A DNA stretch of 64,000 bases, taken from the IMG/VR virus record IMGVR_UViG_3300035698_020241, positions 1 through 64,000 of that record; one strand, given 5' to 3'. Shown here piece by piece: positions 4,395-63,999 of this stretch (the stretch's first letter is position 1; the number at the start of each line of letters is the position of its first letter). Under the pieces are notes generated by a model. The model saw only the letters and a list, made by a program, of their open reading frames with translations, did not search any database and had not been told where the DNA came from. A program made the translations under genes and the position numbers. This DNA is from a virus.

Positions 4395-4423
4395 TTTACA
4401 AATATAAAATTTTAATGTATAAT
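4395..4423 (+). promoter_or_regulatory. Sigma70-type early promoter
   Basis: TTTACA-N17-TATAAT with TG immediately upstream of the -10 box. Confidence 0.85.
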
Positions 4424-6119: not shown

Positions 6120-6148
6120 TTTACATTTTATTGAAAATGATATATAAT
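6120..6148 (+). promoter_or_regulatory. Sigma70-type early promoter
   Basis: TTTACA-N17-TATAAT. Confidence 0.85.
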
Positions 6149-16102: not shown

Positions 16103-16131
16103 TTTACAATTTTATTCAATTGTGTTATAAT
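16103..16131 (+). promoter_or_regulatory. Sigma70-type early promoter
   Basis: TTTACA-N17-TATAAT with TGT. Confidence 0.85.
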
Positions 16132-39451: not shown

Positions 39452-39480
39452 ATTATACACTAACTAATTGTAATTGTAAA
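39452..39480 (-). promoter_or_regulatory. Sigma70-type promoter for primase
   Basis: TTTACA-N17-TATAAT with TG on the minus strand. Confidence 0.85.
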
Positions 39481-46566: not shown

Positions 46567-46595
46567 ATTATAACATATAAAGGTAGTATTGTAAA
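46567..46595 (-). promoter_or_regulatory. Sigma70-type promoter
   Basis: TTTACA-N17-TATAAT with TGT. Confidence 0.85.
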
Positions 46596-54009: not shown

Positions 54010-54038
54010 ATTATACACCAAAATTTAGTATTTGTAAA
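54010..54038 (-). promoter_or_regulatory. Sigma70-type promoter
   Basis: TTTACA-N17-TATAAT with TG. Confidence 0.85.
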
Positions 54039-56727: not shown

Positions 56728-57135
56728 TTATAACAGAGTTAAATCTCCTGTTATAACATCTATTTTTTTATTATTTCCTGGTCCCACAGCCAAGCATGTA
56801 ATGGTAGGCACACCTTTAAACTCTGTAAGTCCTGCATCTTTTATAAGTGCATGCGGCACTTCATGAAATAAACATTCATCCCTAAGTGTGAGTAATTCCA
56901 ACTCACTTTTCACATATACAACTATCTTTGTATATCTATCTCTTAACCATAACCTCATTGGATCATCATAATCCATTGTAAGTTTCAAATGCATTTGGCC
57001 TTCAAAATTTGAACATCGCATTCTATCAAGCATAACCCTCATAGAGGCATGTGCCACTTGAGCACACATTTTACCTTTCCTCATATTAAGGTCCTTTCTT
57101 ACAACTATAACTTGTTTTACATTGCCATCTTCCAT
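56728..57135 (-). CDS. pth2: Peptidyl-tRNA hydrolase 2 (Pth2)
   Basis: KQVIVVRKDLNMRKGKMCAQVAHAS...KIVV...IKDAGLTEF..PTITCLAVGP. Confidence 0.92.
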   Translation of the reverse strand: MEDGNVKQVIVVRKDLNMRKGKMCAQVAHASMRVMLDRMRCSNFEGQMHLKLTMDYDDPMRLWLRDRYTKIVVYVKSELELLTLRDECLFHEVPHALIKDAGLTEFKGVPTITCLAVGPGNNKKIDVITGDLTLL

Positions 57136-57171: not shown

Positions 57172-57960
57172 TTAAGTATCTAATATCACCATAAGTTGTT
57201 CGTATGATATAATATCAATACCATATTTCCTCGCCTTTTTGGACTTACCACTCTGACTATCAGGATCATCAGTTACCAACATATTAACATCTTTACTTAT
57301 ACCCTTTACGGTTCCACCAAGAGATTCTATTTTCTTTTTAATAGCAGGTCTACTCATGTTTCCCTTACCTGTAAGAGTGAATTTCTTACCCTGTAATTTC
57401 TGTCCTACCTCAAACTTCAAACCTTGTTCAAGAAGAAATGTATATAATGGATAAAATTTACCACGATTTATAACAATGGATTCTGCTATAACCTCACCTA
57501 TACCATCTATATCCTCAAAGAAATCTTCATCATCTGAGAAAAATTGTAACATCATATCTTTAGGTGATATATCAGAATATGTATCACATATTGACTTACC
57601 AACCGATCTACCAACATTAGGCATTCCAAATGCTGATATCAGTTTATTTGGAGTAGTTCGTAATGTTCCTTGAATCTCATTAACGATCTGTTCTCCTCGT
57701 TTCATTCCGAAACCTTCTATCGTTGCAATTTCAAACTCATCAATCTCATACGCTTTCTGTATAGTGTTAATATTTAATTTCTTGAGGGTTTTTTCAGTTA
57801 TATACTCTGCTCCAAGGCGTACCAAAAAGTGTTCAACTTCTTTATAGGCTTTAGCAAGACAATCTACATTATTACATACCATATCAACACCTCTTGGAAC
57901 AGCACGGCCTCCACATGATGGACAAAATTCCGGAACATAATTAAAACCATTCATTTTCAT
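57172..57960 (-). CDS. ligA: NAD-dependent DNA ligase C-terminal half (Zn finger, HhH, BRCT)
   Basis: CPSCG...C.NVDC, IEGFGMKRG, FGMPNVG, IDGIGEV, BRCT FTLTG...GGTV...LVT...KSKKARKYGI.II. Confidence 0.88.
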   Translation of the reverse strand: MKMNGFNYVPEFCPSCGGRAVPRGVDMVCNNVDCLAKAYKEVEHFLVRLGAEYITEKTLKKLNINTIQKAYEIDEFEIATIEGFGMKRGEQIVNEIQGTLRTTPNKLISAFGMPNVGRSVGKSICDTYSDISPKDMMLQFFSDDEDFFEDIDGIGEVIAESIVINRGKFYPLYTFLLEQGLKFEVGQKLQGKKFTLTGKGNMSRPAIKKKIESLGGTVKGISKDVNMLVTDDPDSQSGKSKKARKYGIDIISYEQLMVILDT

Positions 57961-58091
57961 ATCCTTTCACACATGTATCCCTTATTATTAGCATTACATT
58001 TATGGCCTTTTATTCTATCATTTAATGTTCTTATTGTTTGTCCTACGTAAGACTTTCCTGTAATTTTGTTTATTGATTTATATATTATCAT
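57957..58091 (-). pseudogene. 44-aa remnant of a GIY-YIG homing endonuclease between the ligase halves
   Basis: MIIYKSINKITGKSYVGQTIRTLNDRIKGHKCNANNKGYMCERI*. Matches the N-termini of the three intact GIY-YIG genes in this window. Confidence 0.85.
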
Positions 58092-59125
58092 TTATAAACC
58101 TTTGAAATGAAAGGTATTACATCACCAGATCTCTGGATATCAATCATTGATCCTTTACATATTTTATTCTCTTGGATGTATTTTGCATTATGACCTGTGG
58201 CCCTTTGTATACTAACACCGTTTATTATAATAGTTTTAACAATAACTGTTGGAATTATTCTTCCAGTTCGTGAGGTATTCCATTCAACATCTATAACCTC
58301 TGTTTTAACACCTTTTTCATTTACTTTGAACGCTATTTTATTTTCAGGATAAAGAACATCCTCTCTTACATAATTGTCAGGTGTAATAACAAGACCATCA
58401 ATATCTTTCAGGTGAGATTTACACATCGTCAAGAAGTCTGTTAAAGATTCTATAACATCTGGAGAATTTGACATATGCATAATATTAGGAGTTTTCAATC
58501 CCATACTTTGCATCAATGTGAATTTGCTTATTTCACTATCATGTTCAACAGAACCCCCATCAAGTATCTCATAGAAGTATGGAACTATATATTTTGCATT
58601 CTTTATACCATCTTTATTCAGTATACCTGCAGTGCCATTTCTACGAGTTTTAAATCCAAGTTTCTTATGTGTGTCTCCTATCAACATAGCTTCACATCTG
58701 AAGGAAAAGTTATGTTTAAGATTTTTTATAACAGGACAGAACATCTTTGCCTTATCTGTTATATCACTACCCTGATAGCCATCACCTCTGGTTGTAGCAG
58801 AAATAACCTTACCGTCTTTAAATCCATATGTAACCATGAAACTTACACCATCAAGTTTTTCTGATATACAATGTGGTCCTGGGTGTTTCTCAATCCACTT
58901 TTCTATTGTATCCGTCTTTTTTTTATGAAGGCTGCCGAGTACAAAAGGTAGGTCTACCTTTTTACCAGAAATAGGAGCACCAATATCATCAAAGTAAGGA
59001 TGGTCAGGTCTTATAGCCCTTGCCTTATCTTTCAAATCATCATAATCGGCGTCTGTTATTTCAACATCACCGTTATAATAGGCATCATCGTGTTCCTTTA
59101 AGGTTCTTATCATCAAATCAAACAT
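58088..59125 (-). CDS. ligA: NAD-dependent DNA ligase N-terminal half (adenylation plus OB domains)
   Basis: AYYNG...DADYD, EKLDG (motif I), TRGDG, IDGLVI, IAFK, SRTGRIIP, ATGHN, RSGDVIP, then stop. Confidence 0.92.
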   Translation of the reverse strand: MFDLMIRTLKEHDDAYYNGDVEITDADYDDLKDKARAIRPDHPYFDDIGAPISGKKVDLPFVLGSLHKKKTDTIEKWIEKHPGPHCISEKLDGVSFMVTYGFKDGKVISATTRGDGYQGSDITDKAKMFCPVIKNLKHNFSFRCEAMLIGDTHKKLGFKTRRNGTAGILNKDGIKNAKYIVPYFYEILDGGSVEHDSEISKFTLMQSMGLKTPNIMHMSNSPDVIESLTDFLTMCKSHLKDIDGLVITPDNYVREDVLYPENKIAFKVNEKGVKTEVIDVEWNTSRTGRIIPTVIVKTIIINGVSIQRATGHNAKYIQENKICKGSMIDIQRSGDVIPFISKVYK

Positions 59126-59134
59126 CTTATCTCC

Positions 59135-59476
59135 TTAGTGTAACCCATCTACAAGTCCTAATGAACTTGCAATAATCAACCAACCTTGTATATCAGTTAA
59201 ACCTTCACTAACAAACCATTCAACAGCTTTATATGGAAAATCCCTTAAAAATTCATCTTTCAAAATTTTATAATTCTGAGAATTTATTAACTCTAATATT
59301 GTTATACCGTTATCATCGGCGATCATTTTATTTAATTGTTTCTTATTTGACAACCCTTTAAATTTTTCACCAAATTTTTCACCGATTCTATCCGATTCTT
59401 CATTTGTCATGTTATTAAGAGTAACAATAGCCGCTCTTAATTCAAAAACATTATAAGGTATTTCCATCTTTTCCAT
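59135..59476 (-). CDS. Hypothetical protein
   Basis: AGGAG RBS. Confidence 0.55.
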   Translation of the reverse strand: MEKMEIPYNVFELRAAIVTLNNMTNEESDRIGEKFGEKFKGLSNKKQLNKMIADDNGITILELINSQNYKILKDEFLRDFPYKAVEWFVSEGLTDIQGWLIIASSLGLVDGLH

Positions 59477-59492: not shown

Positions 59493-60251
59493 TTAAACTA
59501 TATCTATATCAGAGTTTCTATCTTTTCCATCTTTTCCATCCTTTTCATCACCATATACTTCTCTTTTATGATATACATCTTCAAGTTCTTTACAAAGAAC
59601 CCTTTTTATTTTTTTTAAGTCTCCTACTTTCATATCATCCAGTTGATCATCATACATAAGTCTTTTTATAGTTGAGTCTACAACTGCTTGTCTACCCTTT
59701 GACTCACCTAATTCACCTACTGCAGAAAGAGAACGAACCGTGGCTTCCACAGAGTCACATATCATCAAAACGGCTGCCTCTATACTTTGAGGAGGACTAC
59801 ACTTATATCTGAATAAATCCTCTGGAATATCAGGGTTTATATCTATTGCCTTTTTATAAAAAAATTGTAGTACAGTACTACCATGATGCTGTGCGATTAT
59901 ATTCATCACATCCATTGGCATATCTTTTATATCCAAAAGCATAACAACACTATCACCAACATGTCTTGTAAGTATCTGATAAGATAATATAGGATCAATG
60001 TTTTCATGAATATTTTTCCCACCATTCTGATTCTCACTGAAAGCCTCAGGATAATTTATTTTACCTATATCATGGTAATGTGCCGCAACAAGTAAAGTAT
60101 CAACATCAAGTCCTAGTTTCAAAGCAACACTTTCACAAAAACTAGCAACATTCTTACAATGTTTAAAGGTACCAGGTGCTACCTCTCTAAATTTTTCAAG
60201 TAAGGGATACTTTGAATCCAAAAATTTTTTAATATCTACCTTGTCTGGCAT
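59493..60251 (-). CDS. Stand-alone HD-domain phosphohydrolase of the PgpH/YqfF (7TM-HDIG) family, lacking the membrane region
   Basis: PLLEKFREVAPGTFKH, HYHDIGK..P..FSENQ, H, IIAQHHGST.L.FFYKKA, FRY...PQS.EAAVLMICDSVEATVRSL, DDQLD. Confidence 0.85.
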   Translation of the reverse strand: MPDKVDIKKFLDSKYPLLEKFREVAPGTFKHCKNVASFCESVALKLGLDVDTLLVAAHYHDIGKINYPEAFSENQNGGKNIHENIDPILSYQILTRHVGDSVVMLLDIKDMPMDVMNIIAQHHGSTVLQFFYKKAIDINPDIPEDLFRYKCSPPQSIEAAVLMICDSVEATVRSLSAVGELGESKGRQAVVDSTIKRLMYDDQLDDMKVGDLKKIKRVLCKELEDVYHKREVYGDEKDGKDGKDRNSDIDIV

Positions 60252-60294
60252 TTTGTTTGCTCCTTTTCATTTAATTTCTATACCTATTACTTTT

Positions 60295-60323
60295 ATTATA
60301 TCACAGTGATCCTGTCTTGTAAA
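60295..60323 (-). promoter_or_regulatory. Sigma70-type promoter
   Basis: TTTACA-N17-TATAAT. Confidence 0.85.
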
Positions 60324-60325
60324 CC

Positions 60326-60350
60326 AAAAAAACCGTAGTAATCCACGGTT
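60326..60350 (-). terminator. Intrinsic terminator after the tRNA cluster
   Basis: AACCGUGG-AUUA-CUACGGUU plus a U-tract. Confidence 0.75.
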
Positions 60351-60355
60351 GAATA

Positions 60356-60433
60356 TGGTAGCGAAGGTGGGAGTCGAACCCACAAAGACGCTTACTTTTG
60401 AGGCAAGCCGATATACCAGTTCTCTACTTCGCC
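60356..60433 (-). tRNA. tRNA-Leu(CAA), short variable region
   Basis: Acceptor GGCGAAG/CTTCGCT-A-CCA; anticodon arm GCTTGC-CTCAAAA-GTAAGC; T arm GTGGG-TTCGACT-CCCAC. Confidence 0.82.
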
Positions 60434-60520: not shown

Positions 60521-60820
60521 TTATTTAAGTTTGACGCCTGTTATTTTTCTTATCATGTTCTTGAATTTATCCCAGTCCGCCGCTCTTACTATCATTTCCA
60601 TTTCTTCAATCTGTTTATGTGTAGCCTTCTGATAAAACTGGGCCATTTCCTGAAATCCTATATTAGCCTCATAAGACGCTTCATCCTTACGAGGACTTAA
60701 GATATAATTTTTAAATGTTGGCATATATTTCTTCCATTCCTTTAATCTTAAAGCACTTGTACAACTGTTTGACGGTTTCACAGGGAAACTTGTACGACTT
60801 TTCATAGTTATTTTACCCAT
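60521..60820 (-). CDS. Hypothetical protein inside the tRNA cluster
   Basis: AAGGAG RBS; TATAAACA late-like box at 60839-60846. Confidence 0.55.
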   Translation of the reverse strand: MGKITMKSRTSFPVKPSNSCTSALRLKEWKKYMPTFKNYILSPRKDEASYEANIGFQEMAQFYQKATHKQIEEMEMIVRAADWDKFKNMIRKITGVKLK

Positions 60821-60856: not shown

Positions 60857-60932
60857 TGGAGCGGGTACTTAGGAATCGAACCTAAAATCTCTAGTCGGGT
60901 AGACCATTGTAATACCATTATACCATACCTGC
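60857..60932 (-). tRNA. tRNA-Gly-type body with anticodon ACC
   Basis: GCAGGTA/TACCCGC-T-CCA; Gly-like D arm GTATAATGGTATTAC; anticodon loop CT-ACC-CG; T arm TTAGG-TTCGATT-CCTAA. Confidence 0.72.
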
Positions 60933-61317: not shown

Positions 61318-61455
61318 TTATTTCTTCTCCTTTTTCATTTCTTCTACTTTACATTTATGGAAAAAATTACCAAATAATTGGAAAATTCCAATCCATCCTA
61401 TTTGTTCACCACATGATTGACAACACCAACTATTATATTTTACATTCTTCATCAT
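61318..61455 (-). CDS. 45-aa micro-ORF with CxxC...HxC (not in ORF track)
   Basis: MMKNVKYNSWCCQSCGEQIGWIGIFQLFGNFFHKCKVEEMKKEKK*; TAATG overlap. Confidence 0.5.
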   Translation of the reverse strand: MMKNVKYNSWCCQSCGEQIGWIGIFQLFGNFFHKCKVEEMKKEKK

Positions 61456-61994
61456 TAAAATCTATAAACCGTTGATTTTTCAGGTATTAATACATTTTCA
61501 TCTGGACCTAAAGTATTGATAACACTTGCTGAGTATGCCCAATCTATTACACTCTGCTTTTTACCTTCATGGGTACAAAGTTTTTTCGGATCTGGTCTAT
61601 AACCAACACGGCCAAGGTCAAGTCTATCCATATCCCAGCATGTCGTAATAGTGACATCATGAGATCGTGTTCCACCCATATTATGATGTTTAATGGCATA
61701 CATTAAACAATCAATTTGCTTATGTGTATATTCTTTAAGTTCATATTTGAGTAAAGACGCAACATATCTTGCACCTCTTATACCATGGAAATCGTCAGGA
61801 CCTTCTGTTACTCTTTGTGAATCATGGAGTAAAGCGAACAAATCACAAACATCTTGATCTGCTCCTGTCAAAGGTGCAAGGTATCTACCTATCCTTAACA
61901 CTCTGGACCAGTGGGACATACCATGTGTACCTTCAATTCTCAGTCTATATTGACCCAGCACTTTTGACATTATACTATTTGTATCAACTGACAT
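61455..61994 (-). CDS. HD-superfamily phosphohydrolase
   Basis: HGMSHWSRV, FALLHDS, HH, CWDMDRLDL. Confidence 0.82.
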   Translation of the reverse strand: MSVDTNSIMSKVLGQYRLRIEGTHGMSHWSRVLRIGRYLAPLTGADQDVCDLFALLHDSQRVTEGPDDFHGIRGARYVASLLKYELKEYTHKQIDCLMYAIKHHNMGGTRSHDVTITTCWDMDRLDLGRVGYRPDPKKLCTHEGKKQSVIDWAYSASVINTLGPDENVLIPEKSTVYRF

Positions 61995-62014: not shown

Positions 62015-62043
62015 ATTATACATGGTTTTATTCAAAATGTAAA
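62015..62043 (-). promoter_or_regulatory. Sigma70-type promoter
   Basis: TTTACA-N17-TATAAT with TG. Confidence 0.85.
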
Positions 62044-62044
62044 C

Positions 62045-62794
62045 CTACTCTGGGAGCCAATCCCACCATCCTTCCTCATGAGTCATTGAGAGTGCTGTCC
62101 AATCACAACCCTTGTATGAGTTTCTACGATAATGATGAAAATGTCCAAAATACCATTTTTTCGGTCTATACTTGTCAAAAGCGATATTTAAAGCTACACA
62201 ACTCGGGTCTGTATGTTTCCCTAGGTACATCTCCATTTTCATTCCATCGAAGAAATATCTCGGGCATGTATGGGATATAATGATATCCACATCAATATCC
62301 GGTAGCGCATCAACATCCGCTTGATCTATGACCTCAGTTTTCCACCAGTCGAGACCTTGAGTTCTATATTCAAAGTCAATACTATGTCCACCGCCGATGA
62401 AAAGTACAACCCTTCCATCAGGTAGAGTCACATAGGACCCTCTGGGACAATGCCACACATCACTGAAATTTGGCATAGGAAAAGGCTCACGTTTATCTAT
62501 AAGAACCTTTAGTGAATCATGGTCGTCATGATTTCCATCACACCAGTAAAATCTTATATCATTACCATTTATGTCTCTATTCTTTAGACCAAACTGATCC
62601 CAAGGCTTACGTTTAACACAGCCATTCATATTCATTTCTGTATTTTGATGGAGTTTAGGAAAATACCCAAAGTCACCGCACTGGAGTATCATGTGAGGTT
62701 TCCTGCTACTAATCAATTGATTAACAGGATACCAAACTCCATGTGTGTCACCGAGTACCATTATTCTATCTTTATTTGGTTTACTAATCTGCAT
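62045..62794 (-). CDS. Calcineurin-like metallophosphoesterase
   Basis: GDTHG, GDFG, DGNHD, SHTCP, GHFH. Confidence 0.9.
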   Translation of the reverse strand: MQISKPNKDRIMVLGDTHGVWYPVNQLISSRKPHMILQCGDFGYFPKLHQNTEMNMNGCVKRKPWDQFGLKNRDINGNDIRFYWCDGNHDDHDSLKVLIDKREPFPMPNFSDVWHCPRGSYVTLPDGRVVLFIGGGHSIDFEYRTQGLDWWKTEVIDQADVDALPDIDVDIIISHTCPRYFFDGMKMEMYLGKHTDPSCVALNIAFDKYRPKKWYFGHFHHYRRNSYKGCDWTALSMTHEEGWWDWLPE

Positions 62795-63447: not shown

Positions 63448-63999
63448 TTACAATGCTTCTTGTAACATTTTTACTATCCACTTGGCATGGTTATACACAT
63501 ATTGGGTTTCTTTTTTGTCAAGACTTTCCATATATCCGCTATTGTCTTTAAGAAAATCTTTTTTAGCGTCTTTAAGCATATATTTTATATATTCTCCCAG
63601 TTGCTTATTTTCTTTCATCTCACCATATTTAGAGAATATTCCCTGTATCCGCATTGGTGTGAGATATGATCTAAATTCATCATGTAGGTCAAGGAGTTCC
63701 TGAGATATAGGGTCTTTTTGACTCTTAACTCTTTTCTTTCTTTTCATTTTTTCTATGAATTTTTCATTCTTTTTCTTCAAATATACTGTATGTCCGCCAG
63801 AATTTATGTAATATTCATAGTAAGGTTTAATAACCACACCTTCCATTATATTATCACCTTCTGCAATAGGATATATACAACTTTTAAGAACCACATCATA
63901 CTCTATAGCTTTTCTTAATCCCGTTACCATATCAACCGTAGGACATAACAGGTATAACAGTCCTCTATCTCCAAAGAAACATTCCATTCCTTTATCAGA
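63448..63999 (-). CDS. RNA ligase, Rnl2-like (5'-truncated by window edge)
   Basis: Frame is open to the window end. Nucleotidyltransferase motifs IV (EGVVIKP) and V (LKKKNEKF), followed by a helical C-domain. Confidence 0.72.
   Translation of the reverse strand, partial: SDKGMECFFGDRGLLYLLCPTVDMVTGLRKAIEYDVVLKSCIYPIAEGDNIMEGVVIKPYYEYYINSGGHTVYLKKKNEKFIEKMKRKKRVKSQKDPISQELLDLHDEFRSYLTPMRIQGIFSKYGEMKENKQLGEYIKYMLKDAKKDFLKDNSGYMESLDKKETQYVYNHAKWIVKMLQEAL

Follow-up and report, generated by a model that had tools for sequence, protein, structure and literature searches.

The stretch of DNA analyzed here, hereafter the window, comprises the initial 64 kb of the 126-kb IMG/VR virus record IMGVR_UViG_3300035698_020241 (completeness estimate, 53%). 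The window has a GC content of ∼30%, and its coding strand switches near 23 to 24 kb. Because it encodes a UvsX-like recombinase, an SbcC/gp46-like nuclease subunit, a ribonucleotide reductase, a primase, an NAD-dependent DNA ligase, and an RNA ligase, we assign the source genome to a large tailed phage of the T4-like or jumbo kind. Our interest was in a gene of its minus-coded right arm, which encodes a stand-alone HD domain resembling the catalytic domain of PgpH, the bacterial phosphodiesterase that hydrolyzes cyclic di-AMP (c-di-AMP).

An earlier, sequence-only reading had placed a 252-aa open reading frame (ORF) at positions 59493 to 60251 of the minus strand and described its product as a soluble, stand-alone PgpH-type HD domain. 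The ORF is exactly as described, and all motifs named at the time are present in the protein, namely, APGTFKH (residues 25 to 31), HYHDIGK (58 to 64), ENQ (73 to 75), QHHGST (121 to 126), FRYKCSPP (147 to 154), and DSVEATVRSL (166 to 175). The protein matches Pfam HD (E = 9.8e-17) and TIGR00277 HDIG (E = 1.2e-14), and its only strong sequence match in the PDB is the HD domain of Listeria Lmo1466/PgpH (4S1B/4S1C; E = 1e-37). In the alignment to 4S1B, residues 14 to 235 cover chain positions 4 to 222, which is the entire crystal construct, at 36% identity; the next PDB match, an HD-GYP protein (4MCW), follows at E = 0.2. The protein starts 13 residues ahead of the boundary of the crystal construct, such that its N terminus coincides with a structural domain boundary.

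Its description as a soluble protein was likewise borne out. Pfam HD is the only domain detected, with the 7TMR-HDED and 7TM domains of full-length PgpH (PF07697 and PF07698) not found, and the highest 19-residue Kyte-Doolittle mean is 1.27, well under the level of a membrane helix, which leaves the protein without a transmembrane segment. Nor does the DNA upstream of the gene, which holds a promoter, a terminator, and a tRNA-Leu gene, contain a membrane-domain exon. The protein thus belongs to the PgpH catalytic-domain family and not to the full-length 7TMR-HD architecture.

The metal ligands, whose loss would have counted against the sequence-only reading, are all retained. Using a HMMER alignment to 4S1B (chain index + 493), we mapped the seven ligands reported for PgpH, H514, H543, D544, H580, H604, H605, and D648 (PMC8177086), together with the catalytic lysine K547, which stabilizes the leaving group (PMC12072042), to H31, H60, D61, H97, H122, H123, D166, and K64 of the phage protein; all eight residues are kept. 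The same eight positions are invariant in a 22-member alignment of the family, where they are among 50 invariant columns, and the seven metal ligands are 100% conserved in 38 stand-alone sequences.

Conservation extends beyond these generic HD ligands. We compared the 38 stand-alone sequences with 84 cellular PgpH HD domains by overall column conservation; of 39 columns conserved at ≥90% in the cellular set, 27 are occupied by that residue in ≥90% of the stand-alone sequences as well, 10 agree in the majority residue, and 2 differ. Since 37 of the 39 near-invariant cellular columns are shared, the phage protein, as judged from these alignments, keeps a PgpH-specific signature. The residues concerned include P68, F71, ENQ 73 to 75, N80, H82, P87, S90, Y149, P154, E158, M163, E169, Q203, and R230.

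The predicted structure agrees with this assignment. An AlphaFold2 model built from the 22-member alignment has a mean predicted local distance difference test (pLDDT) score of 87.5 and is ordered except for residues 236 to 252, a charged, disordered tail with a pLDDT of <50. In Foldseek comparisons, the model superimposes on 4S1B/4S1C with template modeling (TM) scores of 0.92 to 0.95 (target normalized) and a root mean square deviation of 1.5 to 1.7 Å over ∼218 columns, while all other solved HD proteins, among them HD-GYP, YqeK, and deoxynucleoside triphosphohydrolases, reach a TM score of 0.5 or less.

As for how often this truncated form occurs in phages, a point raised by the sequence-only reading, a word-indexed search limited to lengths of 138 to 441 aa returned 762 relatives, the best 120 of which are all 233 to 268 aa long and 53 to 76% identical to the query. 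Their sources call them "putative nucleotidyltransferase with HDIG domain," "cyclic-di-AMP phosphodiesterase PgpH" (an automatic IMG name), or "HD domain-containing protein, viral metagenome," and leave some unnamed. Among longer proteins, the same type of search gave only forms fused to the seven-transmembrane domain, with 35 to 43% identity among the matches listed. Searching IMG/VR viral contigs with the single protein found none, whereas an alignment-driven scan found 31 loci, on contigs of up to 302 kb, in every one of which the gene is stand-alone; five large carrier records are 64 to 100% complete according to CheckV.

A parallel scan of cellular genomes (one per prokaryotic species) gave 77 matches at ≤41% identity, 71 of them with an N-terminal extension of 286 residues or more ahead of the domain; the remaining six are in ORFs that are cut off by a contig end. 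It also gave three stand-alone copies with 49 to 57% identity on short contigs of metagenome-assembled genomes, L035 (JAEHCK010000188.1), L036 (JASFHE010000010.1), and L037 (CAZNER010000097.1). All three fall inside the viral clade, and because their labels (Thermoplasmata, Desulfobacteraceae, and Saccharibacteria, respectively) are mutually inconsistent, they are probably misbinned phage contigs. Together with the 31 IMG/VR copies, this makes 34 viral-type copies, all of 227 to 280 aa.

In an unrooted maximum-likelihood tree of 122 HD domains, obtained by a quick IQ-TREE search with a cellular sample biased toward the best matches, the 38 stand-alone sequences make up one side of a single branch with a support of 100 in the Shimodaira-Hasegawa-like approximate likelihood ratio test. 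No cellular phylum was resolved as sister to the phage clade, and hence as donor lineage, in this tree. A profile search of 1.84 billion representatives clustered at 50% identity returned 4,210 proteins at E ≤1e-30, of which the top 26 are all short (164 to 278 aa) and fused forms dominate thereafter. In the ESM Atlas, the protein falls into clusters that are 94 to 100% viral (Uroviricota); because two short "bacterial" clusters are also present there, a few genuine cellular stand-alone forms may exist. Overall, stand-alone PgpH domains appear from these searches to form a large, conserved family that is nearly confined to viral DNA.

The catalogues of known phages searched here, from which records of the source genome or its very close relatives may be missing, were devoid of the family. 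The 252-aa protein had no match among PHROGs families and no structural match in BFVD at E ≤1e-3, a tblastn search of 50,697 deposited phage records gave no stand-alone relative (nine weak matches, all of <37% identity), and 8 kb of sequence gave no megablast match to deposited phages. Two of the deposited-phage matches, L002 (730 aa) and L003 (490 aa), were considered as members from cultured phages and rejected, being N-terminally extended proteins from unverified records that group with cellular sequences in the tree.

The sequence-only reading had also credited the gene with its own consensus early promoter. Of this claim, the promoter itself stands: a TG-extended sigma-70-type site lies upstream of the gene (Table 1), and because the preceding tRNA unit is closed off just ahead of it by a hairpin followed by a T-run, the HD gene is the first gene of its transcription unit. 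Loose sigma-70-like matches occur at chance level in this AT-rich window (49 versus 47.8 expected); the exact sequence TTTACA-N17-TATAAT is present in 8 copies versus 0.08 expected. Given this excess and the fact that all eight sites point along the local gene direction, they constitute a genuine promoter family and map the host-polymerase (early-type) transcription units of the phage, whose preferred −35 element seems to be TTTACA rather than TTGACA. A promoter with at least 10 of 12 matches within 200 nt upstream of the homologue was present at 10 of 27 related loci (background, 14%), and one with at least 11 of 12 at 5 of 27 (background, 2.2%); these are typically TTTACA-17-TATxAT, 21 to 35 nt ahead of the start codon. 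The timing implied by "early" is another matter, in that we infer it from the T4 paradigm of host-type promoters.

The conserved genomic partner of the HD gene is the NAD-dependent DNA ligase gene. It is the downstream neighbor at 13 related loci, where it is intact (590 to 640 aa); in the window, it is split, with a 44-codon GIY-YIG-like remnant separating the resulting ORFs of 345 and 262 aa. Beyond the ligase, related loci encode a small Cys-rich protein, an HNH endonuclease, and two conserved unknown proteins. At two loci, the HD gene abuts or overlaps the ligase start (L006, 13-696 and 697-2559; L015, 7983-8747 and 8740-10551), a gene arrangement that suggests translational coupling of the two. 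The 113-aa ORF behind the HD gene in the window is probably cotranscribed with it and is kept at just 1 of the 31 related loci. Upstream of the HD gene, related loci frequently carry a small conserved ORF; in the window, this place is taken by a 99-aa ORF without a family match (60521-60820, minus strand), homologues of which closely precede the HD gene at nine related loci; its product is a conserved small, presumably early protein.

Further features of the region are listed in Table 1. The second, unrelated HD-domain protein lies directly behind another copy of the TTTACA-N17-TATAAT promoter (62043 to 62015). The anticodon of the tRNA-Gly is not normally used in bacteria, and this gene represents either an unusual phage tRNA or a misassigned anticodon. 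The S-adenosylmethionine (SAM) lyase-like protein matches a family of T3-type anti-restriction, SAM-depleting enzymes, and this match suggests that the same leftward region includes counter-defense genes.

Table 1. Positions in the window of the HD gene, its expression signals, and surrounding features
Feature	Position	Strand	Remarks
Stand-alone PgpH-type HD domain gene, 252 aa	59493-60251	-	ORF with ATG start; folded core, ∼residues 7 to 235
Shine-Dalgarno sequence AAGGAG	60260-60265	-	8 nt before the ATG, read from the sequence
Sigma-70-type promoter TTTACA-17 nt-TATAAT, TG-extended	60295-60323	-	11/12 matches
Intrinsic-terminator-like hairpin, 8-bp stem plus T-run	60331-60350	-	Closes the upstream tRNA unit
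tRNA-Leu (CAA)	60356-60433	-	ARAGORN; directly upstream, not part of the enzyme
113-aa ORF without family match	59135-59476	-	Begins 14 nt past the HD stop codon
NAD-dependent DNA ligase, two pieces	57172-59125	-	Downstream of the HD gene
Pth2-type (archaeal/eukaryotic-type) peptidyl-tRNA hydrolase	56728-57135	-	Pfam E = 1.5e-32
SAM lyase-like protein, 227 aa	52715-53398	-	PF23780 E = 5.4e-7, just over the cutoff
tRNA-Gly (anticodon ACC)	60857-60932	-	ARAGORN
Second small HD-domain protein, 179 aa, unrelated	61455-61994	-	Pfam HD E = 1.2e-3; best PDB match 2PQ7, E = 0.017
Calcineurin-like phosphoesterase (metallophosphoesterase)	62045-62794		
Rnl-like RNA ligase	63448-63987		phrog_548
Exact TTTACA-N17-TATAAT, plus-strand copies	4395-4423, 6120-6148, 16103-16131	+	In the plus-coded left arm
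Exact TTTACA-N17-TATAAT, minus-strand copies	39452-39480, 46567-46595, 54010-54038, 60295-60323, 62015-62043	-	In the minus-coded right arm

What might such a protein do for a phage? Because of its 36% identity and TM score of 0.94 to 4S1B and the retained family signature, we infer, as is natural, that it would have c-di-AMP phosphodiesterase activity. PgpH itself is a membrane-bound enzyme with an extracellular sensor domain that converts c-di-AMP to 5′-phosphoadenylyl-adenosine (5′-pApA) at a binuclear metal center and is inhibited by the alarmone (p)ppGpp (PMC8177086, PMC12072042, PMC10117814); its reported specificity is for c-di-AMP, with no cleavage of cyclic di-GMP (c-di-GMP) (PMC8177086). 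Since PgpH is reportedly c-di-AMP specific and the phage clade keeps the family signature, the evidence favors the housekeeping messenger 3′,3′-c-di-AMP as the target. On balance, we lean toward the view that the gene encodes a soluble, unregulated c-di-AMP phosphodiesterase that is made early and would collapse c-di-AMP signaling in the host.

In the mechanism we envisage, the host RNA polymerase would transcribe the HD gene from its strong sigma-70-type promoter right after infection. Bacterial PgpH is tethered, and presumably regulated, through its extracellular sensor and seven-helix membrane anchor; having lost both, the phage enzyme would be constitutively active. A bridging water, activated by a binuclear Mn/Fe center held by the seven mapped ligands (H31, H60, D61, H97, H122, H123, and D166), would attack one phosphodiester of 3′,3′-c-di-AMP, with K64 stabilizing the leaving group; the product would be linear 5′-pApA, which host nanoRNases would take on to AMP. 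The 126-kb record itself contains no DHH/DHHA1 (pApA hydrolase) gene and no diadenylate cyclase gene, and there is no DHH gene in the five large carrier records.

The expected outcome would be a rapid collapse of the c-di-AMP pool. In the bacteria studied so far, loss of c-di-AMP causes uncontrolled potassium and osmolyte influx, raised turgor, and a weakened, more easily breached wall (PMC10117814). In Listeria, phage production is suppressed when c-di-AMP accumulates (bioRxiv 10.64898/2026.05.13.725036). Reasoning from this physiology, we would expect potassium and osmolyte uptake to be derepressed, turgor to increase, and the wall to become more prone to lysis in the infected cell, and a signal able to restrain phage production would be removed. 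Each of these effects is plausibly a benefit for a lytic phage.

Several observations speak against this proposal. The host would have to be a c-di-AMP producer, which most alpha-, beta-, and gammaproteobacteria are not; the diadenylate cyclase domain was missing in our Escherichia coli and Caulobacter controls. Two columns that are invariant in cellular PgpH, G47 and G101, have changed in the phage clade (the latter mostly to Ser), and the clade sits on a long branch with a combined length of ∼1.6 changes per site; because of these two columns and the long branch, a shifted substrate is possible. In the window, moreover, the HD gene sits among genes for RNA repair and translation (RNA ligase, Pth2, and tRNAs). 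Finally, Firmicutes respond to c-di-AMP loss with activation of Rel and (p)ppGpp synthesis (PMC10117814), a response from which a lytic phage might not benefit.

The sequence-only reading had proposed a candidate enzyme of either anti-defense or host takeover. As an anti-defense nuclease, the protein would degrade immune cyclic oligonucleotides, such as the 3′,3′-cyclic GMP-AMP, 2′,3′- or 3′,3′-c-di-AMP, or cyclic triadenylate of cyclic oligonucleotide-based antiphage signaling systems (CBASS) or the cyclic oligoadenylates of type III CRISPR systems, and would thus be an HD-fold counterpart of Acb1, Apyc1, and AcrIII-1. In favor of this role are the cyclic-dinucleotide phosphodiesterase fold of a soluble, unregulated phage protein of early type and the presence of the SAM lyase-like anti-restriction gene elsewhere in the leftward early region. 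Furthermore, 2′,3′-c-di-AMP serves both as an activator of the CBASS nuclease AbCap5 and as the decoy of Panoptes, and the known phage enzymes that degrade such signals are likewise small stand-alone phosphoesterases (PMC12657218). We nonetheless regard this explanation as rather unlikely. The reported specificity of PgpH, including its inactivity on c-di-GMP, and the 37 of 39 signature columns argue for the same housekeeping substrate and not a broadened one; no link to CBASS was seen in any genome context examined, and the HD gene is syntenic with replication genes (NAD ligase) rather than with known anti-defense genes. Hence, because the evidence favors 3′,3′-c-di-AMP as the target, host takeover ranks above anti-defense, and the immune half of the earlier proposal is left without specific support. 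It would be somewhat surprising if the stand-alone clade represented a widespread counter-defense, with HD as a fourth structural class that erases adenine-containing immune signals, or combined such a role with c-di-AMP collapse.

The local neighborhood raises the further question of whether the protein is a nucleic acid or nucleotide housekeeping enzyme, healing RNA ends (2′,3′-cyclic phosphate or 3′-phosphate) together with the RNA ligase or degrading pApA, nanoRNA, or (p)ppGpp. Within about 4 kb of the gene lie the Rnl-like RNA ligase, the calcineurin-like phosphoesterase, the second HD protein, two tRNAs, and Pth2, and HD domains serve as end-healing modules in some RNA-repair systems. 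PgpH, for its part, binds ppGpp as an inhibitor (PMC10117814). This neighborhood is poorly kept, however, with an RNA-ligase homologue near 3 of the 31 loci, Pth2 near 3, and the metallophosphoesterase near 1, as opposed to 13 for the NAD DNA ligase. RNA repair as the main explanation was rejected on this ground, and because the protein is specifically PgpH-like, with TM scores to generic HD hydrolases of at most 0.5, we consider a housekeeping role of any of these kinds doubtful. Still less credible, indeed highly improbable, is that we are looking at a nonfunctional remnant of a captured bacterial pgpH gene, be it a pseudogene left by truncation or a binding protein that has lost catalysis. 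Phage genomes do carry fragments of host genes, and the protein resembles the 3′ third of the bacterial gene. Yet the ORF is intact, with its own promoter and ribosome-binding site; its N terminus lies at a structural domain boundary; 762 relatives of stand-alone length were found; the 22-member alignment has all catalytic residues among its 50 invariant columns; and the stand-alone forms make up one old clade, in which identity to the cellular matches listed does not exceed 43%. Conservation already contradicts a remnant.

We found no report of a phage-encoded PgpH-type enzyme in full-text literature searches, and no virus-encoded enzyme aimed at c-di-AMP is described in the literature searched. 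What we describe is a known catalytic domain that, without sensor and anchor, has become fixed in a large viral clade, probably for a new biological use. c-di-AMP governs potassium, osmolyte, and cell-wall homeostasis, and, to our knowledge, no other second messenger is at once essential and toxic in many bacteria. If our preferred reading of a c-di-AMP-depleting enzyme is true, many large environmental phages reprogram the osmotic and ionic state of their hosts by eliminating a housekeeping messenger; the other possibility is that phages have recruited the HD fold as a new weapon against signaling. The family, if active as predicted, would also offer a minimal PgpH that is soluble by nature and could be used to deplete c-di-AMP in living cells.

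Compared to PgpH (Lmo1466 of L. monocytogenes, YqfF of B. subtilis; the 7TMR-HD proteins), the phage protein has the same HD fold, the seven metal ligands, and the catalytic lysine, and it keeps the ENQ, N..H, FRY..P, and DSVEA motifs as well as the C-terminal R and Y. In contrast, it is without the N-terminal extracellular 7TMR-HDED and the seven-helix membrane domain, carries a charged, disordered C-terminal tail, does not keep G47 and G101, and belongs to a separate, phage-encoded clade with ≤43% identity to the cellular members listed; its activity is predicted from this likeness. The HD-GYP c-di-GMP phosphodiesterases (PmGH [4MCW], Bd1817, PA4781, DvhD), which are bi- or trinuclear metal cyclic-dinucleotide phosphodiesterases of the HD superfamily, are distant relatives only (TM score of 0.4 to 0.5, 14 to 20% identity, sequence E = 0.2), and the phage protein is without their GYP motif. 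DhhP/Pde2 (DHH-DHHA1) and AtaC are likewise cytosolic, unanchored enzymes that lower c-di-AMP (PMC10117814), but they have different folds and catalytic machinery and are cellular homeostatic enzymes.

With the phage-encoded signal hydrolases Acb1 (2H), Apyc1 (metallo-beta-lactamase), and AcrIII-1 (DUF1874 ring nuclease), the protein shares the format of a small, soluble, stand-alone phage phosphoesterase, which is presumably made early and would be expected to remove a cyclic-nucleotide signal, as they do. None of these known enzymes is of the HD fold (PMC12657218), and the 252-aa protein had no match to their families in Pfam or PHROGs; the earlier claim of a fold distinct from those of Acb1 and Apyc1 is supported by Pfam HD and by the Foldseek matches to 4S1B/4S1C. 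The phage HD protein differs from them both in its unrelated fold and in that its nearest characterized relative acts on housekeeping 3′,3′-c-di-AMP, not on a defense signal.

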